Positions 9,639 to 27,194 of a stretch of 32,048 nt of DNA are shown here, piece by piece. The notes under the pieces are model-generated. The model was not told the origin of the DNA and did no database searches. It saw only the letters and a program-made list of their open reading frames with translations. Source of the DNA: Oscillospiraceae bacterium (lineage in GTDB: Bacteria > Bacillota > Clostridia > Oscillospirales > Ruminococcaceae); NCBI GenBank assembly GCA_051888545.1, contig JBJFBR010000243.1:1-32048 (forward strand), given 5' to 3'. The position numbers were made by a program, and so were the translations under genes. Position 1 is the first letter of the stretch, and every line of letters starts with the position of its first letter.

Positions 9639-9667
9639 TTGCAATTTTAGCTGATATGTTGTATAAT
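9639..9667 (+). promoter_or_regulatory. Sigma-A promoter of the host tRNA-Ser gene
   Basis: TTGCAA-17 bp-TATAAT ending 15 bp before the tRNA 5' end. Confidence 0.75.
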
Positions 9668-9682
9668 GAAAAAGTAACTTTT

Positions 9683-9723
9683 GGAGACGTATCGAAGTGG
9701 TCATAACGGACATGACTCGAAAT
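9683..9723 (+). pseudogene. 5' half of host tRNA-Ser(CGA), interrupted at the anticodon loop (attL)
   Basis: GGAGACG-TA-TCGAAGTGGTCATAACGG-A-CATGA-CTCGAAA-T followed by non-tRNA sequence; pairs with 27079-27135. Confidence 0.92.
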
Positions 9724-9864
9724 TTTTTGTAGAGTAGGCTGTTTGCTCCGCTTAAAAAGCCCGTAAATTCAGGGGTTTTCTCCGGTTCGAAAATTGAATA
9801 TTTTGTTGTTCTTTCCGTCAGTTCTTTCCAAAAGTTTTTGGAAGAAATGCGGAATCACATACAC

Positions 9865-9953
9865 GGAGAGTTGTCCGAGTGGTCGAAGGTGCAGCACTCG
9901 AAATGCTGTGTTCCCAAAAGGAACCTAGGGTTCGAATCCCTAACTCTCCGCCA
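9865..9953 (+). tRNA. Complete tRNA-Ser(CGA) carried inside the element
   Basis: Acceptor stem GGAGAGT/ACTCTCC, anticodon arm CAGCA-CTCGAAA-TGCTG, variable arm GTTCC-CAAAA-GGAAC, T arm TAGGG-TTCGAAT-CCCTA, discriminator G and CCA. Confidence 0.96.
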
Positions 9954-9996
9954 AAAAGTCCAGTAAACAAGCGGGTTTTCTGGACTTTTCTTTTTT
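9954..9996 (+). terminator. Terminator after the element tRNA, convergent with the integrase
   Basis: AAAAGTCCAG / CTGGACTTTT hairpin followed by a T-rich tract. Confidence 0.7.
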
Positions 9997-10098
9997 GCTT
10001 GTTTGCTCAAAATCGGCTCAAAACTGCGGAAAGAACAGCCCGTTTTTCGGAAAGAACAAGGCGATTTTCGGCATTTTGGCGTATTCGAACCGTAAAAA

Positions 10099-11313
10099 TC
10101 AGTTCTTTCCGCCGTCGTCTGAAATTTCGGTCCACTTGCTGCCGAAATTCACCGATTCGGGAAGCGCCATTCCGCTGACCATTGCCTTTGCCGACGACAG
10201 TTTTGAAGTGTAGTCAAGGTGGGCATAAATGTTAGCGGTGGTGGAAAAATCGCTGTGCCCCAGCCACTCCTGAATTTGTTTCAGCGGAACGCCGTTCGCA
10301 AGAAGCAGGCTTGCGCAACTGTGTCTTAAATCGTGAAAACGCATTCTTTTACAGCCGTGCTTTTGGATATACTGTGGGAAATAGCTTGTCAGATATTCTG
10401 GTCGCATTAAATCACCAAGCTCGTCTACAAAGACATATCCGTCATATTCGTAGTTGTAGCAGTTGCCGCAGACCTTTTTGTTGACCTCTTGTGCCGCTTT
10501 TACTTCTTTGAAGTATTCCGCAAAGCTGCCGACAAGCGGAAGTGTACGCATACTGGATTTTGTTTTGGCAGAGTCCTGTGCGTACATTTTTGTTTTTCCG
10601 TCCACTTGCAAAGATGTTACGGTGTGCCTAATAGTAATGGTGCCACGCTCAAAGTCGATGGCGTCCCATTTCAGTCCGCAAACCTCGCCACGACGCAAGC
10701 CGTAGAAAGCGGCAACTAAAACAGGAAGTTCCAGCTTTGTCCCTTTGACTACTTCAAATAAGTGTTTCAGTTCTTCTGCATCAAGGAATACAGGCTGATA
10801 ATCATTCTTTTTCGGGCGATCCACTTTCATTGCCACATTCTGCGTAACAAGGTCGGTTTTCATTGCATATTTCAGCGCCTGATGAATAACGGCGTGATAG
10901 TGAATAACCGAGTTTGGCTTGACCGTTTTCAGCTTTTCGGAATAGAATTGCTGAATGTGTCTTGCCTCCAATCCCTGAAGCGTTACCGCCTTCTTACGAA
11001 AATACGGCTCAATCACCGATTTCACCATTTGCTCGTAAGAGCTGAATGTGGTTGCTTTAACACGCACCTTGACAATGTCCAACCATTCAAGCAGATAGTC
11101 TGCAAACGGCATATCGGAAGCAAGCTCGCCGACTTCCTGCGGCGGTACAAATTCACTTCTGATTCGTGCAAGCTCGGCTTCGGCTTTGCGTTTGTTACCC
11201 TTTTCGGGCAGTCCCGTGGAAAAGTATTTCACACGGCGTTTTCCGTTGTTGTTATAGTAGCTCAGCACTACATAATAAAAAACTTTTTTAACTTGTAGGT
11301 GTCCTGATACCAT
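10099..11313 (-). CDS. int: Tyrosine recombinase (integrase)
   Basis: GLRRGE, FHDLRHS and LGHS..STT.NIYAH catalytic boxes; N-terminal arm-binding-like region; AAGGAG RBS. Confidence 0.95.
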   Translation of the reverse strand: MVSGHLQVKKVFYYVVLSYYNNNGKRRVKYFSTGLPEKGNKRKAEAELARIRSEFVPPQEVGELASDMPFADYLLEWLDIVKVRVKATTFSSYEQMVKSVIEPYFRKKAVTLQGLEARHIQQFYSEKLKTVKPNSVIHYHAVIHQALKYAMKTDLVTQNVAMKVDRPKKNDYQPVFLDAEELKHLFEVVKGTKLELPVLVAAFYGLRRGEVCGLKWDAIDFERGTITIRHTVTSLQVDGKTKMYAQDSAKTKSSMRTLPLVGSFAEYFKEVKAAQEVNKKVCGNCYNYEYDGYVFVDELGDLMRPEYLTSYFPQYIQKHGCKRMRFHDLRHSCASLLLANGVPLKQIQEWLGHSDFSTTANIYAHLDYTSKLSSAKAMVSGMALPESVNFGSKWTEISDDGGKN

Positions 11314-11433
11314 TGTATTTAACTCCTTTCATTGTACATCACAGGAAGGACCTACACCGACAAGCCTATTATAGCTTGCCGGCATAGTTCTTTCCATTCT
11401 GCAAAAGTCACTCGCTGTACACTTTGGTTCGAA

Positions 11434-12351
11434 TTAACGAGCGTCTCTGTTGCGTTCTCGTTGGCGTTTCAAAAGCTCCAAGCCTTTCAAAATATCTCGT
11501 TTGATTTGCTCATCGTTGTAATTTTGCGGAAAGTATTTGCGAAACTCATCACGAGGCAGCTTGATTTGTTCCTTTTGATTTGGTTTTTCTTCTGCCAAAA
11601 CAGCATAGACAGCATCGGCGGTAAGCAAGCCGTCCTGTGACATTTTCTTCAGTCTGATACTCTGTGCGTGGGACGGTGTGCAGTCATTCATATTGATTGC
11701 GTCAAGCAAAGTGAGCTGTTCGTCACGGTCGAGGTAGGAGATTTCAACCGCAGGGTTGAAAGCAATTTTATTGTCATCTACCATTGAAAGCAGTTCGGGA
11801 ATTAAGTAAGTTAAGCGGATATATCTTCGCACTTGGTCTTTGCTTTCACCGGCTTCTTCGGCAACTTTTTCTACACTAAGCAACTTCTCTGCAACTTGCA
11901 CAGAAGTTTTACCTTGGTGCTTTATGGCATCCAGTTTCATCTTATACGCAAAGGCTTTTTCGCTTGGCAGTATCGTTTCTCTTTGCAGATTTGCGTCCAC
12001 CATTGCAATCACAGCCTCATCGTCTGACATCTCACGGACGATTACAGGCATTGTTTCAATCCCCAGCACCTGACACGCCGCAAGCCTTCTGTGCCCTGAA
12101 ATAAGCTCATAGCCGCCGTCGGGCAGAGGTCTGGCAAGTGCCGGAGTTATCGTTCCTACCTTGCGTATACTTTCAATCATTCGCTCCATTTCTTCGTTAT
12201 TCAATATCTTAAATGGGTGATTCTTAAAAGGGTGAAGCTCGTCAAGCGGTATGTTCTTTACACGCTCAAGCTTTGCATCGTCACGCTCCGCCTGCGTTGT
12301 AAATAGGTCGTCCAGTGTCGGTAAAGTAAAATCTGATTTTCGTTTTGTCAT
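11434..12351 (-). CDS. ParB/RepB/Spo0J family protein
   Basis: HPF, ISGHRRL and DANLQRE motifs plus HTH; ATG overlaps the relaxase stop (ATGA). Confidence 0.88.
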   Translation of the reverse strand: MTKRKSDFTLPTLDDLFTTQAERDDAKLERVKNIPLDELHPFKNHPFKILNNEEMERMIESIRKVGTITPALARPLPDGGYELISGHRRLAACQVLGIETMPVIVREMSDDEAVIAMVDANLQRETILPSEKAFAYKMKLDAIKHQGKTSVQVAEKLLSVEKVAEEAGESKDQVRRYIRLTYLIPELLSMVDDNKIAFNPAVEISYLDRDEQLTLLDAINMNDCTPSHAQSIRLKKMSQDGLLTADAVYAVLAEEKPNQKEQIKLPRDEFRKYFPQNYNDEQIKRDILKGLELLKRQRERNRDAR

Positions 12352-13733
12352 CGTTCGCATCCTCTCTTTCTTGATTTATTAAGTCCGAAATATCGGCTTC
12401 GCATATTCTCCTCAATGAGAATATTTTCTTTGATTTTGGGGTTATCCTCAATAATCCTTGCCGCTGTTTTCCTGTCCTTTCGGAGCTGAGCAAGAGCCTT
12501 TGTGCAGTCATCTCGCTTGGCAATAAGCTTTGCTTTTTCGTCGGGATTGTGGCAAGAATCAATATCACGGTAGAGCATTTTGCGGTAATCCGATATGAGT
12601 TTTATTTCCGAATCTGCGTTTTTAATAAACACTTCCACAGAAGAAATATCGGTCAGGTGATTGTCGCAAATAAGCTGTACCTGTGCCGTGTGGCGCTCCA
12701 GCCAACGGCAAGCTTCACGCATTTCAGGCGATAACGGCTTGTGCTTTTTATTCTTCGGCAGCACGCCCAGCAGATACAAATATCTGAAATACAACGCCTT
12801 AAGTCCTGTAATCTTATTTGCGGTTTTTAAGCTGCCTCTAACAAAATGAGCTTTTTGAATTGTTACACCGAAACTCTTTTTTTCGGTAAACGCATAGTAT
12901 AAGCGGTAAGCTTCCTGTGGGTTGTTTCGCAGAGTATCTCTCATTCGGTCATAGATTGCATCTCGGTCATAGGCTTCTCCCAAGCGGTACAAACGAGTTG
13001 CTTTCTTGCTGTTGACAGAGCGAATGGTAGCGTATTTATGATATGGATTAAGGTCGATTACATATCCGATCTGTTTCATAACATAGGTGAAAGCTTTGGG
13101 ATTTGTACTCATCGTAAGCGCTTTATCTATCGCCTCACGCATTAAATTGTATCGGGTAGGCTCGCCGTTCTTTTCTGCAAAGTACAGCTTGCGTGGCGTC
13201 TTTCCTGTGGGATTTTTAATGACCGTCAAACCGTTTTCTTTGCAAAGCTCATCGGAAATACTGCGCAGTTTCCAGTATGCTCCCTCGTTGCAGTTAAACT
13301 TCTTACCGTTCCACATATTCACCGAATTGATGACCAAATGATTGTGATATGTGCCGGTGTTAAAGTGCGTAGCGACCAGCACTTGGTACTGATCGCCCCA
13401 CATTCTTTTTGCAAGTTCAACGCCGAGTTTGTGGGCAAGCTGCGGTGTAACTTCACCTGTTTTGAAACTCTGATATGCGTGATAAGCCACATTGCCGACC
13501 GTCTTATCAAAGCGTTCTTGCACCGCATTCATCTCGGCAAAAGCTGTTTCTGCGGTGCAGTTTACGCCTGTAACATACATAGCTTTTTCTTCACCGATTA
13601 CGGTTTTTCGCTCGTCGCTTGCGTAGTGAAGTGCCTTGCAAATATCGCTGTAAATCGTCTTGTCCGGGTTCGCCGCATAGCATAAAACACGGTTGACGCT
13701 GTCTGTTACAGCCCATATTTTTGTTACTGCCAC
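12348..13733 (-). CDS. Relaxase/mobilisation nuclease (MOBP-like)
   Basis: N-terminal Tyr (YAANPDKT), AYHAYQSF, and VATH.NT..YHNHLVINSV three-His motif. Confidence 0.92.
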   Translation of the reverse strand: MAVTKIWAVTDSVNRVLCYAANPDKTIYSDICKALHYASDERKTVIGEEKAMYVTGVNCTAETAFAEMNAVQERFDKTVGNVAYHAYQSFKTGEVTPQLAHKLGVELAKRMWGDQYQVLVATHFNTGTYHNHLVINSVNMWNGKKFNCNEGAYWKLRSISDELCKENGLTVIKNPTGKTPRKLYFAEKNGEPTRYNLMREAIDKALTMSTNPKAFTYVMKQIGYVIDLNPYHKYATIRSVNSKKATRLYRLGEAYDRDAIYDRMRDTLRNNPQEAYRLYYAFTEKKSFGVTIQKAHFVRGSLKTANKITGLKALYFRYLYLLGVLPKNKKHKPLSPEMREACRWLERHTAQVQLICDNHLTDISSVEVFIKNADSEIKLISDYRKMLYRDIDSCHNPDEKAKLIAKRDDCTKALAQLRKDRKTAARIIEDNPKIKENILIEENMRSRYFGLNKSRKRGCER

Positions 13734-14038
13734 GGCGAATCACTTGCTCTTTCCGGATCACCGATTGTGTGGTAAGCCTTCAAAAATTTGCTTACGACAT
13801 AATCAAATCCGTCGCTGATTCTGTCGTCGGGCAGCGACTTAAAGTTGTCACGAAGCGCAGTTAAACCTCGGTAAGCTTCGTAAAATTCCTGTGGCAAGGT
13901 TGCCTGAATTTCTTTGCCCAATCCAAGTTTTCTAAGGTAAGCAGAGAGCGAAAGTCCGCATTTTCTAGCGGCAGTTTCCATTTTTCTTTTCTCTCCCTCA
14001 GTCACTCGGATATTGATTGCAGTTGTTCTTTGTCTCAT
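13724..14038 (-). CDS. mobC: MobC/MobA-like ribbon-helix-helix relaxosome accessory protein
   Basis: INIRVTEGEK...A...GLSLSAYLR pattern; overlaps the relaxase start. Confidence 0.8.
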   Translation of the reverse strand: MRQRTTAINIRVTEGEKRKMETAARKCGLSLSAYLRKLGLGKEIQATLPQEFYEAYRGLTALRDNFKSLPDDRISDGFDYVVSKFLKAYHTIGDPERASDSPWQ

Positions 14039-14059
14039 ATTTTTTCATTCCTTTCTCCT

Positions 14060-14195
14060 AAAAATCGGGGTTACAGGGGCGGCAAGTCCCTTTCGGCAAT
14101 TTGCCGCCGGTTTTGTGGGCTTCAAAGGCAACACAAAGCCTATGCTCGCTATCCTTACGGATTGGCATTACCTGTATAGCCTTATATCCACTTTC
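14060..14195. other. Candidate oriT region
   Basis: Non-coding gap upstream of mobC with short inverted repeats (TTTGTG...CACAAA, GGCTT...AAGCC); position typical of MOBP modules; nic site not determined. Confidence 0.4.
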
Positions 14196-14202
14196 TCAAA
14201 AA

Positions 14203-14275
14203 GTGACGATAGTGACGGATGTGACGGCTTTTTCCTATATAGCGGATTTATTGTCATCGCCGTCATTGCCGTCAC
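14203..14275. repeat. Two inverted triplets of 9-bp-period RTGACR units, candidate replication origin
   Basis: GTGACGATA-GTGACGGAT-GTGACGG on plus; GTGACGGCA-ATGACGGCG-ATGACAATA on minus. Confidence 0.55.
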
Positions 14276-15260
14276 ACTTTTTTAAGCGAATCAGTCGGCT
14301 TGTCCCCGTGCGTTTTGTTTTGTATTCGATGGCTTGCGGCTGAAAAACTTCCGAAGAAAATCGGGCAAGCATTTTGGTCACGACATTAGGTGTTACTTCG
14401 GTTTCGTTCATTTGCGTTATAAGTTCCGTTGCCGTGCCTTGCCACTCTTTATGTTCCGATATAAAATCAACCAGCCGGAAAACAAACTTCGGAATTTCTT
14501 CACGGTGAATGTCCTCCATATCCTTTCGCTCGACCAACTCCCACAAGTGACTGCGGTTGTCAAACTTCAAGGTCAGTTCCTGATATTCGATATCTCGACC
14601 GGTAGCAAGCAGCGTTCCTGTTTCATTGGCACGGCTGCGTTTCAAAACAAAATTCGTATCTGCCGCACCTGTGATACCGGTGGAGCCTGATACCTCGTTG
14701 AATGGGTCGCTGACATCTTTTAGTTTTCTGACGTGATGAACAACCACAACGGCAATACCGTACTTATCCGAAATATTTTTCAGTGCCGATACATCATCAT
14801 AGTCGCCTGCGTACATTCCGCTTTTTCCGCCGGTGCTTTTTGAATCTCGAACCTTTTGAAAAGTGTCGATTATAACAAGCTTTGTTTTCGGGAAGTCGGA
14901 AAGATACTGTTCGATTTGCTGTTCCAAGCCGTTGCCGATTTGAAAACTCGTTGTGGCAATGCGAAGTTCGGGCGGGGCTTCGTCTGTGATTTGATATAGT
15001 CGGTTTTGGATTCTTGCATAAGTATCTTCCAAGCACAGATAAAGCACATCGCTCTTGTGTGTTTCAAAATCCCACACGGGTTGTCCTCTCGCCACTTGAA
15101 TGCCGAGCCAAAGCATAAGCCAGCTCTTGCCGATTTTACTTGAACCCGAAAGCACGCTGAGTCCTTGCGGTATCAAGCCGTCAACCACAAATAAGGTTTT
15201 TCTCATCGGCGTTGACAGCAGCGTGTCCGCATCGATTGTTTTCAGCTTTTCAACTTGCAT
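14235..15260 (-). CDS. AAA_25/RepA-like helicase-family ATPase, putative replication protein
   Basis: Walker A GSSKIGKS, YLCLED, Walker B VIIDT, VHHVRK and SGSTG motifs. Confidence 0.85.
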   Translation of the reverse strand: MQVEKLKTIDADTLLSTPMRKTLFVVDGLIPQGLSVLSGSSKIGKSWLMLWLGIQVARGQPVWDFETHKSDVLYLCLEDTYARIQNRLYQITDEAPPELRIATTSFQIGNGLEQQIEQYLSDFPKTKLVIIDTFQKVRDSKSTGGKSGMYAGDYDDVSALKNISDKYGIAVVVVHHVRKLKDVSDPFNEVSGSTGITGAADTNFVLKRSRANETGTLLATGRDIEYQELTLKFDNRSHLWELVERKDMEDIHREEIPKFVFRLVDFISEHKEWQGTATELITQMNETEVTPNVVTKMLARFSSEVFQPQAIEYKTKRTGTSRLIRLKKCDGNDGDDNKSAI

Positions 15261-15477
15261 TCTTTACACCTTCTTCCATAACATAATTGATGACATTGAC
15301 CTTCGGAATCTTAAAAGCGTTTCCAATTTTAACGCCGGAGATATATCCGTTGTTAATCAGGTCGTATGCCAAGTGTCGGCTTACGCCGAGCATTTGTTGA
15401 AGCTGAGCTACCGTAACAATGTCCGGGTAATCCGGGAACATCATTTTGTAAAGCTCTTTTAATTCTGTTTTTCTCAT
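15250..15477 (-). CDS. Excisionase-like HTH (HTH_17) protein
   Basis: YPDIVTVAQLQQMLGVSR..AY.L and KIG..FKIPK; GGAGG RBS. Confidence 0.85.
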   Translation of the reverse strand: MRKTELKELYKMMFPDYPDIVTVAQLQQMLGVSRHLAYDLINNGYISGVKIGNAFKIPKVNVINYVMEEGVKNAS

Positions 15478-15728
15478 CTTCTTAACCTCCTTTGTGAGAA
15501 AAAGCTGCACGGTATGTACAGCTATGTAAGAGGCAACAGTTGAAAGGAGGGCTCTTTCTGTTGCCTTTTCGCCGTTCTACCCGAATGTCGTTTTTCTATC
15601 CCTGCCCCATCTCAGCGGCGTTGCTTCGCTTTCGTCGTCTCCGACTGTCATCGCAAAGTCATATCTCATTCGGACGGTCATTCAATTTTTAGAAAATCAA
15701 ACAATATACAATCTTGATTTGCAAATTT

Positions 15729-15771
15729 ATTATAGCTATGTGTTGACACGAAGGCAATACTTTTGTATAAT
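15729..15771. promoter_or_regulatory. Overlapping divergent sigma-A promoters
   Basis: Plus: TTGACA(15743)-17-TATAAT(15766). Minus: TTGCCT(15757)-17-TATAAT(15734). Confidence 0.75.
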
Positions 15772-15840
15772 GTTCTTTGTAGTGATATAGATTTGCCAAC
15801 AATTCAAAATTTCTCATTTTCTAAAACGGAGGTCTCAGTA

Positions 15841-17262
15841 ATGAGTGGAAACCTGCTTCAAACAGAAGATAAATACAGCGCTGTGTCCTTTGGATTTGCT
15901 CCAAACAGATGGCACATGACAGATGATGAGAAGTCCTGCGTGCTGTCCGTGAATGACGAGTACAACTATTCGAAGCTCTTTGAACTGTTTAATGCTATTG
16001 ACGCCGATAAGCGAGAAGCGATTGCTCTGGCTGTTACCGGCAAAAAAGAATTTGCTTTATCGGACGGTGAAATTGCTCAAATTAAGCAGGATGCTGCCGA
16101 TACGCTTGCTCGTTTGCGAGCCGTTACGCAAAAAATAAACTCCGCATTTGACTTTCTTCCTTTAGGTGACAGCAGAGCTTATATTTCACCGATGAACACC
16201 TCTTCTGTCTTTTTTTCACCGGGCGAAGGAATTTTGAATTTTCTATATGCAGATTTTGATTCGGCATATAATGAATGCCTGAATCGCACAAAAAAAGACC
16301 TGCCTGACGAGACAAGTCTTGATATATCTTTACTGACCGAAAAAGAAAAGAAATTGTATTATTATTTGGCTTTAACCGAAACGCAAAAACGCTTTAAGCC
16401 ATTGATAGAAGCTTCTCTGTTTACAGCGGAATTTCCGCCTATTCTGCTTCATTGTTCAGAACAGGAGTTGACGGACTACTATCAATATCTTAAAGAAATA
16501 CAAAGTAATCTCTTGAATTTAATCGAGGCGACATTTGACGAGAATTTTTGCGACGGATTTTTCAATCTCCTAACCCATAAAACGAGATTTGCAGGCTACT
16601 GCCGTAAGCTCGGCTTGCCGGCAGAGCAAAAGAGAACGATTGTGCATAGCATCAGCATCATTGATGCCGAACATCAGATAGAAAATGTGCTTGACGGCTA
16701 TATAGATAGTGATTTTGATATGAATATAAAAATGGCTGCCGTTTCGGAGGTGGATTTGAGTATTCAAAAGGATTTGGACAAGCTTGGTTTTACTATGCCG
16801 GAAATGATTGCCTTGTCCGTAATGCAAGCTGGTGAATACGAAACCTGTATTTGCGAAAGTATTGAACAGCAAATTGAGTTTGAATTGATACAGTTGTTGA
16901 AGTCCGACACCGGAATGCGCAAATGCAAACGCTGCGGTAAGTATTTCATTATGAAGGGCAACTACGACACCAATTACTGCGACCGCATTACCGAGGGTGA
17001 AACCCGCAACTGTCAGGACTTAGCCGCACAGGAAAACTACAAAAAGAAAATGGCGGACAATGCCGCCATTCCGTTGTATCAAAAGTATTATAAGCGCTAT
17101 GCCGCCCGTGTGCGTGTAAGGCAGATTAAAGAGCCTGATTTCAAAAAATGGAAGTATCAGGCGATGACAAAGCGAGACGAATGCTCCGACGGCAAAATCA
17201 CCCTTGCGGAGTTTGAAGCATGGCTTGAAGCCAGTTTTCCTAATAGGAAGAAGAAACAATAA
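15841..17262 (+). CDS. DUF6076-like protein with C-terminal Cys cluster, possible element regulator
   Basis: KCKRCGKYF...YCDR...RNCQ followed by a basic tail; GGAGGT RBS before ATG 15841; family name from recall. Confidence 0.65.
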   Translation: MSGNLLQTEDKYSAVSFGFAPNRWHMTDDEKSCVLSVNDEYNYSKLFELFNAIDADKREAIALAVTGKKEFALSDGEIAQIKQDAADTLARLRAVTQKINSAFDFLPLGDSRAYISPMNTSSVFFSPGEGILNFLYADFDSAYNECLNRTKKDLPDETSLDISLLTEKEKKLYYYLALTETQKRFKPLIEASLFTAEFPPILLHCSEQELTDYYQYLKEIQSNLLNLIEATFDENFCDGFFNLLTHKTRFAGYCRKLGLPAEQKRTIVHSISIIDAEHQIENVLDGYIDSDFDMNIKMAAVSEVDLSIQKDLDKLGFTMPEMIALSVMQAGEYETCICESIEQQIEFELIQLLKSDTGMRKCKRCGKYFIMKGNYDTNYCDRITEGETRNCQDLAAQENYKKKMADNAAIPLYQKYYKRYAARVRVRQIKEPDFKKWKYQAMTKRDECSDGKITLAEFEAWLEASFPNRKKKQ

Positions 17263-17294
17263 TCATCCCTTGCCAATAAACAACCGATTTCCCC

Positions 17295-17327
17295 AAGCGG
17301 AACTGTAACAAAAGCAGTTCCGCTTTT
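17295..17327 (+). terminator. Intrinsic terminator
   Basis: AAGCGGAACTG / CAGTTCCGCTT hairpin with T-tract. Confidence 0.75.
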
Positions 17328-17369
17328 ATAATATTTTCTTGTAATTCCTTTATAAATCCGCAATAATCC

Positions 17370-17398
17370 TTGATTTTAAAGCTAAAATATGCTATACT
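17370..17398 (+). promoter_or_regulatory. Promoter of the cargo region
   Basis: TTGATT-17 bp-TATACT with extended -10 TG. Confidence 0.6.
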
Positions 17399-17440
17399 AA
17401 AGTTGTATAAATATATCTACCCGAAAGTGAGGAAAATTAA

Positions 17441-17629
17441 ATGGATTCCAACATTGAACGCTGGTACTCAATGAAAGAAATTTGCGAATACCTCGGCGTC
17501 AGCCGTGACACCGTACTCGCTTGGATAGAAAAAAGAAATATGCCCGCCGCAAAAATCGGTCGCCTTTGGAAATTCAAGGTCAGCGAAGTAGACGCTTGGA
17601 TGAAATCCGGCGTTGCGGCAGATAAGTAA
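17441..17629 (+). CDS. Small HTH_17/MerR-like DNA-binding protein
   Basis: WYSMKEICEYLGVSRDTV..WI and PAAKIGRLWKFK.SEVD.W. Confidence 0.85.
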   Translation: MDSNIERWYSMKEICEYLGVSRDTVLAWIEKRNMPAAKIGRLWKFKVSEVDAWMKSGVAADK

Positions 17630-17638
17630 GTTCCGGAG

Positions 17639-18133
17639 ATGTACAATATGGGTTTTATTGAATCGTATAAACATCTTGAAAAACTATGCGGCGAAGTATT
17701 AAATGACGATAGGCGTATATCCGCTTATATTGATGAAATGATAAATACTCCCCGTGGTTCTTATCTTGTAAGAGGTTGGGATGATGACCTAAAACAACTG
17801 AAACACTACCGTTGGGTTAGGAATCAAATAGCACATGAACCTGATTGCACCGAGCAAAATATGTGTGAACCGCGTGATACTGTGTGGCTTGACGATTTTT
17901 ATTCACGCATAATGAATCAAACCGACCCTCTCGCTTTATATTCTAAAGCCACCAAGCCTCGTCAGGCTCAAAAACCGGTACAAGCTCTTAAGCCGGAATC
18001 CCATACATACACTTATTCTCAGCCGACTTCTAATCATAGAAAATCATCCCCACAGGCTGCCGGTTGTATGACATTTTTAGTAGGTATTTTAATTATTGTA
18101 GTTGCAATCGTTTTAATTTCAGGAATATTATAG
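17639..18133 (+). CDS. Hypothetical protein with HEPN-like RxxxxH motif and C-terminal transmembrane helix
   Basis: RNQIAH in a helical N-terminal domain, low-complexity linker, hydrophobic C-terminus. Confidence 0.55.
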   Translation: MYNMGFIESYKHLEKLCGEVLNDDRRISAYIDEMINTPRGSYLVRGWDDDLKQLKHYRWVRNQIAHEPDCTEQNMCEPRDTVWLDDFYSRIMNQTDPLALYSKATKPRQAQKPVQALKPESHTYTYSQPTSNHRKSSPQAAGCMTFLVGILIIVVAIVLISGIL

Positions 18134-18153
18134 TTCGATTTTGGAGGTGCAAT

Positions 18154-18759: not shown

Positions 18760-18775
18760 GAAATGAGGTACAAAT

Positions 18776-19858
18776 ATGCCCGACAAGAATTGGCAATTTG
18801 AACTTGAAGAATATATAAAGCAGGGCGAACCTGAAAGAGCCGAAAAAAGCGAAGCTTGGCAAACTGCTATCGGTCTGCAGGCGGTTGACGGGCTGAAAAC
18901 CTCCGAATATTTGCTGGACACCGCAAAGGATCACATCGAGGGCAAAATCACCATTGACGAGGCTCAGAAGCGTATTCACAGCTATTACGAGCAGAGATCA
19001 ACCCGTACCGAAACCGAAAACGAAACAAAGGAAGCCGACATCGTTTCCGCAAGGATCACAAAGCTGTTGGGCGAAAAAGCGTTTCAGTTTTCTCCGGCAG
19101 AGTGGATTACCATTCACCGCAGATTGTTTGAGGGCGTATTTGACCACGCCGGACAAATCCGTCAGTATAACATTTCCAAAAAGGAATGGATACTGAATGG
19201 CGAAACGGTTATCTACGCTGATTGGGACAGCATAAAAGACACTTTGGATTATGATTTTTCCACCGAAAAACAGTTTTCCTATGAGGGGCTGTCGGTTGAA
19301 GCATCGGTAAAGCATCTTGCAAAATTTGCATCAGATATTTGGCAAATTCACCCTTTCGGCGAGGGTAACACAAGAGCTACCGCCGTGTTTATGATTAAGT
19401 ATATGAAAACTTTTGGTTTCCGTGTCAACAATGATGCGTTCCGTGAAAACTCTTGGTATTTCCGTAATGCATTGGTTCGAGCAAACTATAACGATTTGCA
19501 AAAAGGTATTCATTCCACCACAAAGTTTTTGGAATTGTTTTTCTCAAACCTTCTGCTCGGTACAAATTACAAATTAAAGAATCGCTATATGCACGTTGAT
19601 TTTGTGGATGAAAACGCTTCCCAAAGTATCAATTCTAAAGTTCCAAAGTCTCAATTTGACACTTTGGACTGCACTTTAGAGGAACTGGCGATTTTAGAAT
19701 TAATTGCAAAAAATCCAACTATCAAACAACAAGAAATGGGCGAAGCGACCGGAAAATCTCTCAGCACTATAAAGCGAATTATGAAATCGCTACAGGATAA
19801 AAACTATATCCGCCGTGAAAGCGGCAAACGCTACGGCAAATGGGAAGTTTTGGTTTGA
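18776..19858 (+). CDS. Fic family protein with N-terminal antitoxin-like helix and C-terminal winged HTH
   Basis: HPFGEGNTRAT; N-terminal AIGLQAVDG; C-terminal NPTIKQQEM..ATGKSLSTIKR. Confidence 0.85.
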   Translation: MPDKNWQFELEEYIKQGEPERAEKSEAWQTAIGLQAVDGLKTSEYLLDTAKDHIEGKITIDEAQKRIHSYYEQRSTRTETENETKEADIVSARITKLLGEKAFQFSPAEWITIHRRLFEGVFDHAGQIRQYNISKKEWILNGETVIYADWDSIKDTLDYDFSTEKQFSYEGLSVEASVKHLAKFASDIWQIHPFGEGNTRATAVFMIKYMKTFGFRVNNDAFRENSWYFRNALVRANYNDLQKGIHSTTKFLELFFSNLLLGTNYKLKNRYMHVDFVDENASQSINSKVPKSQFDTLDCTLEELAILELIAKNPTIKQQEMGEATGKSLSTIKRIMKSLQDKNYIRRESGKRYGKWEVLV

Positions 19859-19881
19859 AATATAAGAATTGAGGTTAAAAA

Positions 19882-20922
19882 ATGCAAAACAACTCGATTT
19901 TAAATAAAGCAAAATATTCTGAAAACACTGATGAATGGTATACAGATTACAGCACGGTTGAAAGTGAATTATCCCATTATATTGAACATTTTTCTGATAA
20001 AATTGTATTGTGCAATTGTGATGATCCGTATGAATCTGCGTTCTCAAGATATTTCTTGAAAAACTTTAATGTTTTAAAATTAAAAAAATTAATATGTACA
20101 TCGTATAAAGGCTCTCGCATTCTTGAAAAACTTCAAATAACCGACAATAAAAATCAAAGATTAAATAAAAATTCTGCTTATGTAATGATCGTCGAAAGTA
20201 AGCATTTCAAAAGTAAACCATATATAGATGACGATGATATCATTGATTTTTTGAATGGCAATAACGTTGTAACTAAGTTAAAGGGCGATGGCGACTTTCG
20301 AAGCGAAGAATGCATTGAGTATCTAAAAGAAGCAGATATTATCGTAACAAACCCTCCATTCTCAAAATTCATAGAATTGTTTTCATTGATTATTAAATAC
20401 AACAAAAAGTTTTTGCTAATAGGCAATCAAAATGCAATAACCTATAAAGAAGTTTTTCCTTATATAAAAAATGGTGAAGCTTGGATTGGTTATTGCTTTG
20501 GAGATATGAAATTCAAAGTTCCAAGCGATACAAAGCCAAGAAAAACCCGTTTTTGGATAGATGAAAACGGTCAAAAATGGCGCAGTTTAGGTAATGCAAT
20601 GTGGCTTACCAATTTGGATAATGAAAGAAAACACAAGGAATTAGTTTTAACTGCCTATTACGATCCGAATAAGTATCCGTATTATGATAACTACAATGCT
20701 ATTAACGTATCAAGGGTCATTGATATTCCGATGGATTTCACTGGTGTTATGGGTGTCCCCTTAACATACTTAAAGTATCATAACGACGAACAGTTTGAAA
20801 TTGTCGGCGAAGCAAACCACGGTTCTGACAATGAATACGATTTGTTCAAGCCCATAATAGACGGCAAAGAAATATTCAAACGAATACTAATAAAAAACAA
20901 GAAATGTGTGGTGAGAAAATGA
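19882..20922 (+). CDS. Adenine-specific DNA methyltransferase, EcoRI-methylase-like family
   Basis: DEWYT, VLCNCDD, GDGDFRS and IIVTNPPFS motifs. Confidence 0.88.
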   Translation: MQNNSILNKAKYSENTDEWYTDYSTVESELSHYIEHFSDKIVLCNCDDPYESAFSRYFLKNFNVLKLKKLICTSYKGSRILEKLQITDNKNQRLNKNSAYVMIVESKHFKSKPYIDDDDIIDFLNGNNVVTKLKGDGDFRSEECIEYLKEADIIVTNPPFSKFIELFSLIIKYNKKFLLIGNQNAITYKEVFPYIKNGEAWIGYCFGDMKFKVPSDTKPRKTRFWIDENGQKWRSLGNAMWLTNLDNERKHKELVLTAYYDPNKYPYYDNYNAINVSRVIDIPMDFTGVMGVPLTYLKYHNDEQFEIVGEANHGSDNEYDLFKPIIDGKEIFKRILIKNKKCVVRK

Positions 20923-21986
20923 AGTTCAAAATTTTGGATTTGTTTTGTGGAGCCGGCGGATTATCTTATGGAATGCATAAAAATCCGCATTTTGAAACAG
21001 TCGTTGCTTTAGATGTAAATGAGAATTTAGCAATTACCTTAAAAAAGAATATGCCTAAAGTCAATGTTGTTGTTGGAGACATAAAAGAAACTGCAATAAA
21101 AGAAAAAGTCATAGATTTATCGCTTAAGTCTGGTGTAAATATGATTGTAGGCGGGCCACCGTGCCAAGGCTACTCGATGAAAGGAAAAAAGTTGGGATTA
21201 GAAGATCCACGCAACTTCCTGTTTATAGAATATTTGAATTTTGTTGAAAGACTTCAGCCTGATGTTTTTGTTATAGAGAATGTAAAAACATTGCTGTCTA
21301 CATCTAAAGGATGGTTTAAGGAGCAAATTCTCTCCGCTATTGAAAGGTTGGGCTATTTTGTTGATGTTGGAGTATTAAAAGCTACTGACTTCGGTGTGCC
21401 GCAATCAAGAGAAAGAACAATATTTATTTGTAGTAAAAAGAAAAAGATAAATCTTCCGTTACCAACCGTCGAAAAGCCTGTTACTGTAAAGGATGCCATA
21501 AGTGATTTAGCCTATTTGAATTCAGGTGAGGGCGATTTTGAATTAGAATACACTACAAAAGCTACATCTGAATATCAAAAACTTATGCGTGCAAATAGCT
21601 CAAAATTATATAATCACAAAGCATCGAATCACGCTGAAATAGCTATTAAAAAGTTAGCAATGATTCCACCGGAAAAAGGTAAAGAGTGTTTGCCAAAAGA
21701 AATGCTCGGGAAACAGCAATTCAATTCGACTTGGGGCAGATTAAAATGGGATGAGCCTTCACCTACTATAGACACAAGATTTGATGCCGCATCTAACGGC
21801 ACAAACAATCATCCTTTTTTACATCGTGCAATCACTCCGAGAGAAGCCGCTAGATTGCAATCATTTGACGATAACTACATCTTTTATGGTACGAAAGTTG
21901 CTGTAAGAACACAAATAGGCAATGCTGTCCCCCCACTGATGGCAAAGGCAATTGCAGATAAAATTTATACGGAGATAGGAGAATGA
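20919..21986 (+). CDS. DNA (cytosine-5)-methyltransferase
   Basis: DLFCGAGG, GGPPCQG, ENV, QSRER, REAARLQSF and QIGNAVPP motifs; ATGA overlap with the upstream MTase. Confidence 0.96.
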   Translation: MKFKILDLFCGAGGLSYGMHKNPHFETVVALDVNENLAITLKKNMPKVNVVVGDIKETAIKEKVIDLSLKSGVNMIVGGPPCQGYSMKGKKLGLEDPRNFLFIEYLNFVERLQPDVFVIENVKTLLSTSKGWFKEQILSAIERLGYFVDVGVLKATDFGVPQSRERTIFICSKKKKINLPLPTVEKPVTVKDAISDLAYLNSGEGDFELEYTTKATSEYQKLMRANSSKLYNHKASNHAEIAIKKLAMIPPEKGKECLPKEMLGKQQFNSTWGRLKWDEPSPTIDTRFDAASNGTNNHPFLHRAITPREAARLQSFDDNYIFYGTKVAVRTQIGNAVPPLMAKAIADKIYTEIGE

Positions 21987-22324
21987 TTATGTATAGAGAT
22001 TTACTTGATTTTTTAAGGAATGAAGAATTCTTTATTGAAGCAGAGGCAAAACCTTCAAGAATGCGAAATTTTGTAAACGAATATAACGCAACATATGATG
22101 AAAATTTAACATTCGAAGATCCGGGTATGATTATTCTACAAGAGGATGCTAATAAATGGGGGTTGGAATTAAGACTCTATGTGTATAACCGTCCCCCAGA
22201 AAACATATACCAACTAGGTTTTACTCATAATGATGCGTATAGAGACAACTTTTCTTTCAGATTAAACGATAACGACGTCGTCAATTTTCTGTTTGAACAA
22301 GGATACAGAATTGGATTTAATTAA
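21983..22324 (+). CDS. Hypothetical protein (113 aa)
   Basis: ATGA overlap with the C5-MTase stop; AGGAG RBS; no motif recognised. Confidence 0.75.
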   Translation: MIMYRDLLDFLRNEEFFIEAEAKPSRMRNFVNEYNATYDENLTFEDPGMIILQEDANKWGLELRLYVYNRPPENIYQLGFTHNDAYRDNFSFRLNDNDVVNFLFEQGYRIGFN

Positions 22325-22336
22325 CGGGGTGTTAAT

Positions 22337-23209
22337 ATGAATACACAAATGGCATATCTTATCGGTATGATTCTCGGTAATGGTGAGGTTCAACGAAAAA
22401 CAGATACGACAACCATTACCATCGAATTGCCTCATAAAAACTTGATTGATGATGAAGGAAGAGAAGTAGCAGTTTACGTTAAAAGTAGTTTGGCTGATAT
22501 TAGAAGCGTTATCGAACCTTTAATTGGGCACTCCTTGCCTATATCTGAAACCAAAAAGGCTACACAATTTTCATTTACAAAACCCAATGAAGATTATACT
22601 ATGCGTGAAATCCTTAGATTTATTGGAAATGGCGTTCATCATTCAACTATGACTATGAATAGCGAACTTTTCAGTATGACAACCGATGAAAAGAAAGAAC
22701 TATTGCGAGGAATGGCCGATGTAACAGGATATATCCGCAGAAGTAATATCGCTTTTGGTCAAGAGGGATGGCATAGAGTTTACATAGAAATTCCCGGCAA
22801 TTGGCAGTTAGTTATCGACATAGCCAATATGCTTAAGGATTTAGACATCCCTGTTCAGACAATAGATTTTGGTCATCCAAATTTCAGGGATTCAAACCTA
22901 AAAAAATATAATGAAGGCAAAAAATACTATTGGAAAAAGGAACATCAAGTTAAAATTTGGGCAAATGAGTTTCTACCAATTGGTTTTAACATTGTACATA
23001 AGCAGCGAGCATTAGAAAAGTATGCCGACGAATTGCTTGAATACTTGGATGAAAACAAAACTCACAAGTTTTATTGGGAGAAGCCTCTCAAACGTAAAAA
23101 TCGCCCGTTCCATCCTATGGTTAATGATGATCTCATCCCAGAAATCATCCGAGGAAAACATTATGAATCTTGGACACTGTTAGCAAAGGATTTAGGTTAT
23201 GGTGAATAA
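22337..23209 (+). CDS. Double-motif LAGLIDADG-like protein with degenerate catalytic positions
   Basis: AYLIGMILGNG (res 6-16) and LLRGMADVTG (res 122-131), each followed by a beta-strand-like segment. Confidence 0.55.
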   Translation: MNTQMAYLIGMILGNGEVQRKTDTTTITIELPHKNLIDDEGREVAVYVKSSLADIRSVIEPLIGHSLPISETKKATQFSFTKPNEDYTMREILRFIGNGVHHSTMTMNSELFSMTTDEKKELLRGMADVTGYIRRSNIAFGQEGWHRVYIEIPGNWQLVIDIANMLKDLDIPVQTIDFGHPNFRDSNLKKYNEGKKYYWKKEHQVKIWANEFLPIGFNIVHKQRALEKYADELLEYLDENKTHKFYWEKPLKRKNRPFHPMVNDDLIPEIIRGKHYESWTLLAKDLGYGE

Positions 23210-23702
23210 TGTAAAAAGAGAAGTCGAACTTTATGCAGGAATGTGCGATTGGTTAGAAATATACTTAAATGATAAGTACCATTCTAAAAAATGCGATATT
23301 TTTGTTGTCGATTGCCACTCTGTAAATCTTGATTCAGTATTAGAACAATATGGAATTATCAAATACTATCCTCAAGCAGTCGGATTAAAAATAGAAATTG
23401 ATGTTCTTGGTATGGTTATATGGGGAAACAAGGCAGAAATCTTCTTTATTGAAGCCAAGAAAACACAATTGACTTTACAAAATTTAGGACAACTTCTTGT
23501 TTACTGCAAACTCTGTAATCCTGAAGAAGCATTCCTATTATCATCCGCAGGTTTAGGGAGCTTAGATAAGGTTCTGAACGTTTTGGGAAGGGAGGATTTG
23601 TTGGACTTTGGAACCGGGAAACGAATCAAGAAAATTAAAGCTGCTAAATGGGACACGGCGAGAAATATAATTGATCACCATTCCATCATCCCCAAAATAT
23701 AA
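23199..23702 (+). CDS. Small PD-(D/E)XK-family nuclease
   Basis: E8, IDV (D68), IEAK (E85/K87) and GQLLVY (QxxxY); overlaps the upstream gene by 11 bp. Confidence 0.65.
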   Translation: MVNNVKREVELYAGMCDWLEIYLNDKYHSKKCDIFVVDCHSVNLDSVLEQYGIIKYYPQAVGLKIEIDVLGMVIWGNKAEIFFIEAKKTQLTLQNLGQLLVYCKLCNPEEAFLLSSAGLGSLDKVLNVLGREDLLDFGTGKRIKKIKAAKWDTARNIIDHHSIIPKI

Positions 23703-23740
23703 ATTAGTATATAAATTTAAACGAAACGAGGACAAAGCTT

Positions 23741-24838
23741 ATGGCTGATATTTTCCAAACAGAAAATGAAACATATGAAATTGATGTACCAAAAGAAAAA
23801 AGATATTTAAACACAATGTCTTATGACTATTCTGTGCAATACATCTATGATTTGATTAAAAAAGGCAAAATAATTCTTGAAGTACCTTTCCAAAGAAAAC
23901 AAATTTGGAAAACAGACAAAGCATCTTCTCTTATTGAGTCAATAATTATGAATGTACCCATTCCGCCGCTTTACTTTGCTGAGGAAGAAAATGGGAGTTG
24001 GCTCGTGTTAGACGGCCTGCAGAGACTGTCTAGTATTAGGAATTTTTATGATAATGAGTTTGCTCTGACAAAATTAGAAGTTCTTACAGATCTAAATAAG
24101 ATAAAATATAAAGATCTACCGCCCAAATCTAAGAGCCTTCTTGATGATGGTATGTTACGTGTTAACGTAATAAAAAAAGATTCTCACAGAGACATTAAAT
24201 ATGACATTTTTATGCGTTTGAATCGTGGTGCTGTAACATTGAATTATCAAGAGCTCAGGAACTGTATGTATAGAGGAAACCTTAACGATGCGGCTAAAGA
24301 GCTTTGTAAGGAAAACACTGACTTTTTGAAAATACTGAAACAGAAAGCCCCACACCAGCGTTATTTGGATGTTGAATTTATAATCAGGTATTTTGCAATG
24401 AGCGATAATATAGCTATTGATGAGAATGGCGATGTTTATATTGAGGGGTATAAAGGCAAATTGGTTCAATTTATAAATGAGTATATGGATACTCATAAAG
24501 ATTGTACCGAGGAAGAAAAGCAAGGATACAAAGATCGTTTTAACTCAACGATAGAAAAAGTTGTAACTGTATTTGGTACCGATGAAGCATTTAGAGATAT
24601 TAGCACCGGCAACACCAAGATATACAAAACAATTGCAGATTTTATTATGCCGAGTCTCGAACGAATGAGCAAAGAATTTGTCGAAGCAAATACAGAGCAA
24701 ATTTATAACCGTCTTAAATCTTTTTTGATGATAGATGATATCAAGGACTCCTTATCAAAAAGAACATCTGATAAAGATATTGTAAATAAGCGTGTTAAAA
24801 TGTGGTTTAAGGAGTTTGAAGATGCCATATCATTATGA
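23741..24838 (+). CDS. DUF262 (ParB/Srx-like, GmrS-like) domain protein
   Basis: FQR..IW, LIESI..VPIP, DGLQRL and IFMRLNRG..L...ELRN motifs. Confidence 0.9.
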   Translation: MADIFQTENETYEIDVPKEKRYLNTMSYDYSVQYIYDLIKKGKIILEVPFQRKQIWKTDKASSLIESIIMNVPIPPLYFAEEENGSWLVLDGLQRLSSIRNFYDNEFALTKLEVLTDLNKIKYKDLPPKSKSLLDDGMLRVNVIKKDSHRDIKYDIFMRLNRGAVTLNYQELRNCMYRGNLNDAAKELCKENTDFLKILKQKAPHQRYLDVEFIIRYFAMSDNIAIDENGDVYIEGYKGKLVQFINEYMDTHKDCTEEEKQGYKDRFNSTIEKVVTVFGTDEAFRDISTGNTKIYKTIADFIMPSLERMSKEFVEANTEQIYNRLKSFLMIDDIKDSLSKRTSDKDIVNKRVKMWFKEFEDAISL

Positions 24839-25466
24839 GGCAACTTCAGAATTCATGCAAAGTGTTTCTGAGGTTGAAAAGCTGACTACTTTGGCTTCCT
24901 CTGATGATGAAAATCGAACATTGTTTTTAAAATTAGCGGTTGTATCATTAGTTACCAAGTTTCAAGTATTTGTAGAAAAAGCGCTTGATGAATTCAGGTA
25001 TAACCTTAATGGCATGACCAGCGGAAGTTTGCCGCTGTATATGAAAATGAATGCCATACGTTTAAGTGTAATGGATGGTAATGCATTAATAGGTATACAG
25101 AAGCATCATTTCACAGAGGAAAAGAAAACCAAGATTGTAAACTATTTAAATTCAATATCTTTCATATCAGATGAAGATGCAGAAATAGATGAGTCTTTTA
25201 TGTTTAAGACAAAGTTTCCTTTAGGAAAGACTGGCAAAGGAGAATTAGTTGAATTGCTGTCCCAAATAGATGGCGACCAAAATCCTTTTGAAAATTTTGA
25301 CACGGACGATTTTGACAAACTTGATTCGGTTTTACAGACAAGACATCTAATCATTCATCAAGACAGATTTACTGGTACAGAAACAACTGTAACAGACAAT
25401 GTTTCCTTTATTAAGAATCTTGTTGAATACATAGATGAATACTTGTTTTTAAAAGCACCAATTTAG
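24822..25466 (+). CDS. HEPN domain protein
   Basis: Helical protein with RHLIIH (RxxxxH) near the C-terminus; AAGGAG RBS; overlaps the DUF262 gene. Confidence 0.7.
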   Translation: MPYHYEATSEFMQSVSEVEKLTTLASSDDENRTLFLKLAVVSLVTKFQVFVEKALDEFRYNLNGMTSGSLPLYMKMNAIRLSVMDGNALIGIQKHHFTEEKKTKIVNYLNSISFISDEDAEIDESFMFKTKFPLGKTGKGELVELLSQIDGDQNPFENFDTDDFDKLDSVLQTRHLIIHQDRFTGTETTVTDNVSFIKNLVEYIDEYLFLKAPI

Positions 25467-25471
25467 CAAGC

Positions 25472-25504
25472 AACAGGCACGGAAGTAAACCTCCCGTGCC
25501 TGTT
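25472..25504. terminator. Hairpin between convergent genes, probable bidirectional terminator
   Basis: AACAGGCACGG / CCGTGCCTGTT. Confidence 0.7.
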
Positions 25505-25505
25505 A

Positions 25506-25652
25506 CTATTTTGAGAATTTTATTATGACTTCATCTACTCCGTCGGTGTATTTACCTTGAGTTAAGAGTTTATTTCGGAAATTGAGCAAACATTGAATTA
25601 TAAGGCGGTACTCAGAGTTGGTTAGGCGTAGATAGTATTTTCGTTTTCTCAT
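25506..25652 (-). CDS. Small hypothetical protein (48 aa), not in the ORF track
   Basis: MRKRKYYLRLTNSEYRLIIQCLLNFRNKLLTQGKYTDGVDEVIIKFSK*; ATGA overlap with the tnpV stop; ends at the terminator. Confidence 0.6.
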   Translation of the reverse strand: MRKRKYYLRLTNSEYRLIIQCLLNFRNKLLTQGKYTDGVDEVIIKFSK

Positions 25653-26026
25653 ATAAACAACACTTCTGAATTAACAACCTCAGTTGCTCTACTACGGATA
25701 TTATTCATCTTCCGCACCCACGCCATTTGGTCGGCGGATTTGAGTTGTTCGGTCACTCCCTCTTTTTCGGCGTATTCTTTTACCAGCCGGAGAAAAAGTT
25801 GTTGTGCCTGTTCTTCGATGTCGGCAAGGTGGGAATGTAGTTTGCCGGAAGTGAGTAGATTGTAGTACAGCACCTTATGATGCTGCTTCAAATATCGTTT
25901 GTGTCTTAATGCCCACACACCGATATTACCCGGTTCTTTTTCCACCGGTAATGATAAGTCCGGCAAGAGATAGTCACCAATCTGTGTATAAGTGCCGCCG
26001 AGTTGTTCAAATAATGTGTCAGTCAT
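25649..26026 (-). CDS. tnpV: TnpV family protein
   Basis: GGTYTQIGDYLLPDL, GVTEQLK..DQMAWV.KMNNIR; GGAGG RBS before ATG 26026. Confidence 0.88.
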   Translation of the reverse strand: MTDTLFEQLGGTYTQIGDYLLPDLSLPVEKEPGNIGVWALRHKRYLKQHHKVLYYNLLTSGKLHSHLADIEEQAQQLFLRLVKEYAEKEGVTEQLKSADQMAWVRKMNNIRSRATEVVNSEVLFI

Positions 26027-26218
26027 AGTAAAAAACCTCCTTTGATACTTAGATTGTATCAAAAGAGGTTTTCTTTTTCGAATGTGCGATTTATGAATTT
26101 GCAAATTATGCTCGTGCCAAAAATTACAACGAATATTTTCAAACCTGTGCCACTTTTTACAGCGAACATACCGAATATTCAGTGAAAAACCACCCCAAAG
26201 CAAAAATTCAGCGAATAT

Positions 26219-26806
26219 TCACTCTTTTGTTTTCAATCCTCGTATCACTTGCCAACGGGGGAATTCTCGCAGCACCCGGATATGCCAATCAGATTTGCGG
26301 ATAATGGTGCGAAAATATTTCGAGCAAAAAAATTCTATTAAATAGACTTTCGGAATATGATTCACATTGTTTCTTTTGAACGATTTAAGATGTCCTTTCC
26401 TGCACCAATCATTTATTGACGTTGTGCCGTAGCCGATTATTTTTGATATTTCGGTCGCAGTCAGCACATCGGGATACTGTGCAAACAGTTCCGTGTAATA
26501 CAGCTTCATATTTTCAAGAACCGGTTCGGGTACTTCGGCTTTCATTTTTACGGCATAGTTCCCCTTGTACCAACCTGCCGGTGCGGAATAAGATTCGGGG
26601 AATACTTTTCTCTTTTCAAGATATGTAATAACATCGGCCTTTTTGATTTTGTAACAGCGAGTTTTCTTGCCCGTGTATTCGCACGGTATCTTGCCGCTGC
26701 GAAGCAGATACAACGCCGTTGATTTGCTGATATGGCAGATTTGATAGAGTTGGTCTTTGGTAATAATATCAGGAATCGAATCCCAGTTGATTGCAGTTTC
26801 ATTCAT
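26219..26806 (-). CDS. Tandem HTH_17 DNA-binding protein
   Basis: Two repeats: PDIITKDQLY.ICHISK.TA.YLL and YPDVLT..EIS.IIGY..TSINDW. Confidence 0.75.
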   Translation of the reverse strand: MNETAINWDSIPDIITKDQLYQICHISKSTALYLLRSGKIPCEYTGKKTRCYKIKKADVITYLEKRKVFPESYSAPAGWYKGNYAVKMKAEVPEPVLENMKLYYTELFAQYPDVLTATEISKIIGYGTTSINDWCRKGHLKSFKRNNVNHIPKVYLIEFFCSKYFRTIIRKSDWHIRVLREFPRWQVIRGLKTKE

Positions 26807-26878
26807 AGCAATACACCTCGTAAATGTTTTAGTCGGTGCAGGTTTTTCCCGTGTATTGCCGTTGTTAATGTGTTTATT

Positions 26879-26926
26879 CTGTTCTTTCCGCAGTTCTTTC
26901 CAAAATAGTGCCTGTTCTTTCCGAAA
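26879..26926. repeat. GTTCTTTCC repeats at the right end, putative integrase arm-type sites
   Basis: Direct copies at 26881, 26893 and 26914. Confidence 0.75.
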
Positions 26927-27078
26927 ACAGCGAAAATGCCGTTATTCGAACTTTCCTGTATTTATCGGGATTTCTGCGGCGCAACCGCTAAAAAGCCTTT
27001 AATTTCAAGCATTTTCGGCGAATAGAAAACCGCCCGAAACTGCCTTCAAAAATCGCTAAACTGCCATTAACCCATAAA

Positions 27079-27135
27079 ACTCGAAATCATGATGCCCCTT
27101 GAGGGACGTGGGTTCGAATCCCACCGTCTCCGCCA
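27079..27135 (+). pseudogene. 3' half of host tRNA-Ser(CGA) (attR)
   Basis: A-CTCGAAA-TCATG, variable arm, GTGGG-TTCGAAT-CCCAC, CGTCTCC-G-CCA; complementary to the 9683-9723 half only. Confidence 0.92.
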
Positions 27136-27164
27136 GATATTTTAAGCGGCTTTGACCGCAGGAG

Positions 27165-27194
27165 AAAACCGCAGGCTTTATGTCTGCGGTTTTT
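27165..27194 (+). terminator. Terminator of the original host tRNA-Ser gene
   Basis: AAAACCGCAG / CTGCGGTTTTT. Confidence 0.7.

Follow-up and report, generated by a model that had tools for sequence, protein, structure and literature searches.

Here, we describe a 17.4-kb insert that splits the tRNA-Ser(CGA) gene of an Oscillospiraceae bacterium (GenBank assembly GCA_051888545.1, contig JBJFBR010000243.1) in its anticodon loop and carries a whole, different tRNA-Ser(CGA) of its own. The window, to which all coordinates refer, is the 32,048 nucleotides of that contig from position 1 on the forward strand. We read the insert as an integrative and mobilizable element (IME) whose tRNA, likely transcribed from the captured promoter of the host gene, likely replaces the gene that integration breaks, and we put the probability of this reading at roughly 0.7. 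It builds on the split host gene, a 9-bp core, an empty site, the whole tRNA, and a layout found throughout the integrase family.

Joining positions 9683 to 9723 to positions 27088 to 27135 gives an 89-nt tRNA-Ser(CGA), called by ARAGORN with every stem paired. Unjoined, the window yields a tRNA-Leu(CAA), a tmRNA, and one tRNA-Ser(CGA) at 9865 to 9953 (plus strand, CCA encoded, also matched by Rfam at 51 bits), and ARAGORN calls no tRNA at either element junction in the window. The core repeat, ACTCGAAAT, is exactly 9 bp, lies in the anticodon loop, and occurs at 9715 to 9723, at the end of the host 5' half (attL, 9683 to 9723, plus strand), and at 27079 to 27087, ahead of the host 3' half with its CCA (attR, 27079 to 27135, plus strand). 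A third copy (9896 to 9904) lies within the element's tRNA, and the window holds no other. The element's tRNA starts 141 bp inside the left end and differs from the host halves in every stem, with 62 of 90 aligned columns equal (69% identity). A first-pass annotation, made from the letters of the window, had reported the well-paired joined flanks, the 9-bp repeat with no functional tRNA at the junctions, and a whole but different tRNA-Ser(CGA) inside the left end; all three observations stood, and the coordinates it gave for the flanks were right.

It had also proposed looking for the joined, empty allele in related DNA, and that allele was found intact in two places. One is the end of contig C185 of the source assembly (87 of 87 nt identical), where the same smpB flank precedes it (98.7% over 1,661 bp); C185 stops at the tRNA 3' end, so that this empty site is seen with its left flank only. 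Because C185 and the left flank of the window are 92 to 99% identical, C185 represents a co-binned second strain and not an excised copy. The other is a genome of the same genus (G001), in which the identical allele is intact behind promoter-like sequence, with no match to element proteins in the 6 kb fetched. Reads of four DNA runs on positions 9000 to 28000 reached the element in places and left the host flanks uncovered, and their joints were tRNA-Ser genes of other species, which makes these runs uninformative on the empty site of the window. The YunG-like gene of the right flank had only 31 to 33% matches, in 5 of 26 genus genomes, and was of no use for this purpose. A tRNA intron was rejected, the insert being 17 kb long with an integrase and a relaxase, and an empty site existing.

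Relatives were taken as the best 80 of 515 integrase loci in genome contigs (71 to 99% identical; mostly Clostridia-class records plus one Erysipelotrichaceae), from which 12 loci with less than 450 bp beyond the integrase gene (int) were set aside, leaving 68. At 57 of these 68 loci, one to three host 5' halves (one in 44, two in 11, three in 2) are followed by an arm, a whole tRNA-Ser(CGA), and then int. The remaining 11 have a whole tRNA only (7), a 3' half only (3), or nothing (1), and two of the seven are tandem junctions, in which a further right arm, a core, a left arm, and the tRNA follow one another. The outermost 5' halves comprise 29 different sequences in 53 loci, and one whole-tRNA allele, identical to that of the window, is common to 17 loci while the host halves vary. 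Longer regions were retrieved from 21 genomes; both ends were present in 14, and in 12 of the 14 a 5' half pairs fully with the far 3' half (7/7 and 5/5). These counts, obtained from the survey of integrase homologs that the first-pass annotation had suggested (a full tRNA-Ser beside int, host halves at both ends), agree, together with the empty site, with its two proposals that the element replaces its target instead of repairing it and that many host alleles can be used. The viral collection, whose contigs are not necessarily phages, held 32 loci, with a 5' half and whole tRNA in 6 and a 3' half only in 2.

More distant integrases were also seen. Four that are 39 to 52% identical (G070:C37 [L179], G099:C2 [L191], G049:C5, and G066:C6) have the same arm and whole tRNA-Ser(CGA) layout, so that the strategy spans a deep integrase clade. 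Three in the viral collection (L155, L156, and L160; approximately 48% identical) adjoin tRNA-Leu(CAA) rather than Ser(CGA).

A mechanism can be proposed from this arrangement. The integrase would recombine at the core with the help of GTTCTTTCC repeats that flank both cores and are predicted arm-type sites: two direct copies (9808 to 9816 and 9821 to 9829) in the 141-bp left arm (9724 to 9864, plus strand), two further, inverted copies between the tRNA and int (10028 to 10057, minus strand), and three (26881 to 26889, 26893 to 26901, and 26914 to 26922) in the right arm (26881 to 27078, plus strand). RNA polymerase would start at the host tRNA promoter, for which a promoter-like site lies outside the element (TTGCAA-17-TATAAT, 9639 to 9667, plus strand; 10 of 12 positions, a consensus match only), and would cross the 5' half and the arm into the element's tRNA. 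Transcription would stop at a terminator-like hairpin (−15.2 kcal/mol) with a T run behind it, located between the tRNA and the convergent integrase gene (9954 to 9989, plus strand; missed by a stricter scan). The leader would be trimmed by RNase P, and excision would restore the host gene. It follows from this structure that the Ser(CGA) gene of the cell changes with integration state, as the first-pass annotation had proposed. What the element likely gains is access to many hosts while sparing them the fitness cost that loss of a single-copy tRNA would bring.

The source of transcription is the point on which the closest alternative differs: the element would still replace the host gene, using a nonconsensus promoter of its own in the left arm, as in the actinobacteriophage Fionnbharth, whose tRNA promoter was shown with a reporter (PMC10865867, available part). 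We consider this unlikely. In the window, the left arm contains neither a promoter match nor a terminator match, and the promoter match on the host side lies just ahead of the 5' half. Our scan recognizes consensus sigma-70 promoters only, and with it 39 of 56 host flanks had a match, compared with 0 of 56 arms of equal length (two loci were short of flank). Host flanks reached 40 of 57 (11.4 expected from shuffles), and, counting all loci, 1 of 58 arms adjoining a whole tRNA had a weak match, in a 367-nt composite arm. Since the arms are related, their 73 spacers falling into 23 clusters, the counts are not independent; the cluster representatives gave 3 matches in 23 against 3.2 expected. 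The last 250 bp of the right arms gave none in 15. An own promoter would draw support from the 17 of 57 true host flanks that also lack a match within 150 bp, which means that the scan misses, or stops short of, real promoters, and from the lone −10-like hexamer in 27 of 73 spacers; such hexamers are nevertheless below chance (7 against 14.1 expected). The placing of terminators also argues against it, the hairpin being universal behind the whole tRNA (58 of 58 loci) and wanting from the arms (1 of 23 arm clusters). The element's tRNA thus appears to have no recognizable promoter, and read-through from the host tRNA promoter is likely the simplest reading.

The restriction of the scan to consensus promoters and the relatedness of the arms weigh against replacement from a captured promoter, and so do several other observations. 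At five whole-tRNA-only loci (L049, L080, L083, L093, and L097), the tRNA stands directly behind host-like upstream DNA without an arm, and two genomes (G047 and G048) have mismatched 5' and 3' halves, so the layout is not universal; the five armless loci are possibly collapsed or conventional forms in the same integrase family. The element's own circle junction had one match in metagenome contigs (L192) and none in viral contigs. We rejected L192 as a circle, since it consists of a right arm running into a left arm of 77% identity and the decayed start of a tRNA, lacks an integrase, and is a decayed scar. Finally, the source assembly (G000) also has a tRNA-Ser(UGA), which may read UCG by wobble, and UCG makes up 6.3% of serine codons in long open reading frames (ORFs), so that a replacement tRNA may not be needed.

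This last point, with the decayed tRNA start behind the arm of L192, is what favors regarding the element's tRNA as a passive relic or landing pad that is not kept for complementation, Ser(UGA) covering the UCG codons. Escherichia coli stays viable when its Ser(CGA) gene is mutated to an amber suppressor. We nonetheless hold a relic or landing pad to be improbable: all stems are paired across 25 element tRNA alleles, every locus has the terminator behind the tRNA, a landing pad would require the core alone, and retention of Ser(CGA) is widespread in the order. Of 200 near-complete genomes of the order, 159 had a whole Ser(CGA), in nearly all cases as a single copy. When 10 negative genomes were rechecked, 4 had a CGA-type 3' part, and the three fetched were orphan 3' halves, which places the true share above 159 of 200. 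A looser pattern gave tRNA-like matches in 3 of 5 rechecked negatives, so the tRNA pattern misses alleles; Ser(GGA), tried as a ceiling for tRNA recovery, was found in only 121 of 200 and was unfit for that use. Loss of Ser(CGA) would be expected to bring a fitness cost more than lethality. A chimeric assembly is very hard to credit, as is a tRNA repaired in the ordinary way that has an unrelated fragment next to it. The assembly does mix two strains at this locus (C243 and C185), but the same layout occurs in 57 other genomes, including cultured strains (L068, Clostridium leptum DSM 753; L076, Pseudoruminococcus massiliensis; L086; and L098, Flavonifractor sp. An82), and the halves, which pair perfectly, have no stem in common with the whole tRNA.

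Because the element's tRNA retains the core, it is a fresh integration target, and nested and tandem arrays were found in natural genomes. The first-pass annotation had noted neither this role as a target nor the apparent lack of a promoter. In G041, a 99%-identical element has inserted into the tRNA of an outer element whose integrase is at 56% (the far end of the outer element was not found within 78 kb); in G063, the tRNA ahead of a 73% integrase contains a 68% element; and G049 and G066 have tandem elements. An orphan inner 5' half is present in each of G043 and G060, and a foreign 3' half in each of G047 and G048. Such orphan and foreign halves are what would be expected if any two cores of a nested array can recombine. 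The halves in G047:C4 and G048:C9 (L130 and L124-L125) come from different alleles, with 5 of 7 acceptor pairs, so excision would leave a mispaired tRNA. In G045:C1, two identical 3' halves lie 23 kb apart (near 414589 and 437612) at a complex accretion site, with more partial tRNA 3'-end duplications downstream of one of them.

On a quick integrase tree of 69 rows, in which 34 of 66 inner branches are open, 12 tRNA allele families required 22 changes against a minimum of 11, and for the commonest family the well-supported branches force at least 6 changes. In G248, G134, and G082, alleles of the type carried by the element in the window occur as resident genes preceded by promoter-like DNA, with no match to an element protein in the fetched stretches beside them (1.6 kb only for G082); element tRNAs are therefore of host type. 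A broader proposal, to which we give slightly less than an even chance, is that the promoterless whole-tRNA cassette of this large gut-bacterial IME family is a promoter trap, switched on only after integration behind a host tRNA promoter, which would free the element from matching the host allele and renew the target. Core-by-core recombination would then stack 5' halves, build nested defense islands, and swap tRNA alleles between elements and hosts. Sometimes the host halves left behind would not match; excision would then deprive the cell of its Ser(CGA) gene, which would lock the element in.

The insert has the predicted make-up of an IME with defense cargo. Beyond its flanking att sites and empty site, it encodes its own recombinase, a tyrosine integrase of 404 aa with Phage_integrase and SAM_3 domains (10099 to 11313, minus strand), in which we see what we take to be the R, HxxR, H, and Y motifs. 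A MobA/VirD2-like (MobP-type) relaxase (PF03432; 12348 to 13733, minus strand) is accompanied by a NikA/MobC-like relaxosome protein (13724 to 14038, minus strand). Among the element ORFs scanned, neither a VirB4 nor a coupling protein family, and hence no complete type IV secretion system, was found; among the 19 scanned for phage genes, no capsid, tail, or terminase family was found, a search that left three cargo ORFs unassigned and did not include PHROGs. Integrases 98 to 99% identical occur in hosts of several families, which implies recent transfer.

The closest published system is tRNA-dependent lysogeny, shown experimentally in the actinobacteriophages Fionnbharth, LeBron, and Gaia (Guerrero-Bustamante and Hatfull 2024, PMC10865867). 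Both systems combine a tyrosine integrase with an attB in a host tRNA gene, a core of about 10 bp (8 to 17 bp in Table 2 of that paper), no tRNA rebuilt at either junction, a diverged tRNA of the same anticodon on the element, and arm-type sites (here predicted) flanking the core. They differ in that the carrier here is a relaxase-bearing IME in which no phage genes were found and in that its tRNA is placed within the attachment arm, colinear with the host promoter and without a promoter match of its own, whereas the Fionnbharth tRNA overlaps gene 37 and has a strong promoter of its own (PMC10865867, available part). In tRNA-dependent lysogeny the disrupted tRNA is essential and the carried one is required for survival, whereas the target here is Ser(CGA), which may or may not be essential; nested and tandem arrays in natural genomes are a further difference. 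The authors of PMC10865867 speculate about integration of a second plasmid into the tRNA on the element, and the word "conjugative" does not occur in the paper. By this comparison, the element appears to work like tRNA-dependent lysogeny without being a member, as it is not a phage and the cell may not depend on the carried tRNA.

Prophages offer other parallels. In Sinorhizobium meliloti they inactivate tRNA-Leu(UAG) and carry a substitute (PMC11476347, with Sinorhizobium prophage cases noted also in PMC12429752), and Lj965 of Lactobacillus johnsonii is a similar case, as cited in PMC10865867. These cases share with ours a central tRNA core, a broken host gene, and a foreign tRNA of the same anticodon; unlike ours, they are prophages, and the available portions of these sources do not mention promoter capture or nesting. 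Canonical tRNA-associated IMEs and islands resemble the element in their tyrosine integrase, relaxase without a conjugation pore, anticodon-centered crossover, tandem accretion, and defense cargo. According to the parts at hand of an IME review (PMC5704250), tyrosine-integrase IMEs at tRNA ends leave their targets undisrupted, and according to those of PMC4383910, Islander relies on target restoration to find islands. Such elements carry a target fragment that restores the gene, whereas here the repeat is 9 bp, attP has no displaced tRNA end, and integration leaves the gene broken. A method that matches each whole tRNA to a fragment of that same tRNA would likely place the ends of such an element wrongly or overlook them.

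The first-pass annotation had asked whether this arrangement was already described. The principle is published for phages (PMC10865867, as far as available), and in the literature searched, which covered the accessible parts of papers outside subscription, no nonphage case of tRNA replacement on integration was found. What is added here is a nonphage carrier, natural nested arrays, and, likely, promoter capture; tRNA replacement on integration is thereby extended beyond phages to elements mobilized by conjugation. The arrangement suggests how one integrase family spreads across hosts with widely differing tRNA-Ser alleles, and it offers a route, open to testing, by which a core translation gene could be replaced horizontally. 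A tool for integration into a broad range of gut Clostridia could be made from the integrase, arms, and tRNA. The arrangement also gives a warning, in that tRNA annotation and island finders can mistake the element's tRNA for the host's.

The other genes of the element, in order, encode a ParB-like protein (11434 to 12360), an AAA_25 ATPase (14235 to 15260), and an HTH_17 excisionase-like protein (15250 to 15510, below the NCBIfam cutoff), all on the minus strand. On the plus strand follow DUF6076, DUF6548, and two Fic-domain genes (15763 to 19858, with PADLOC PDC-S04 and PDC-S72 matches); the adjacent Fic genes (18064 to 19858), NmFic-like (above the NCBIfam cutoff) and Fic with a MarR helix-turn-helix, also occur in several related elements. 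The defense cargo (19882 to 25466, plus strand) comprises EcoRI-type adenine and C5 cytosine methyltransferases, three ORFs without assignment (21983 to 23702), and a GmrSD_N/NsnA-like gene overlapping a RiboL-PSP-HEPN gene (23741 to 25466), together a candidate restriction plus abortive-infection cassette. A TnpV gene and a double HTH_17 gene (25649 to 26806, minus strand) are kept at the right end of most fetched relatives. The backbone has a GC content of 45%, compared with 34% for the cargo and 35% for the left flank. Outside the element, C185 (positions 1 to 9763, corresponding to 1 to 9723 of the window) gives the left flank of the second strain, with capsule-type glycosyltransferase genes, tmRNA, smpB, and the intact tRNA. 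In the window, the tRNA-Leu(CAA) and tmRNA genes (8172 to 8705) are convergent and approximately 90 bp apart just left of smpB, which places three common integration targets within 1.6 kb.

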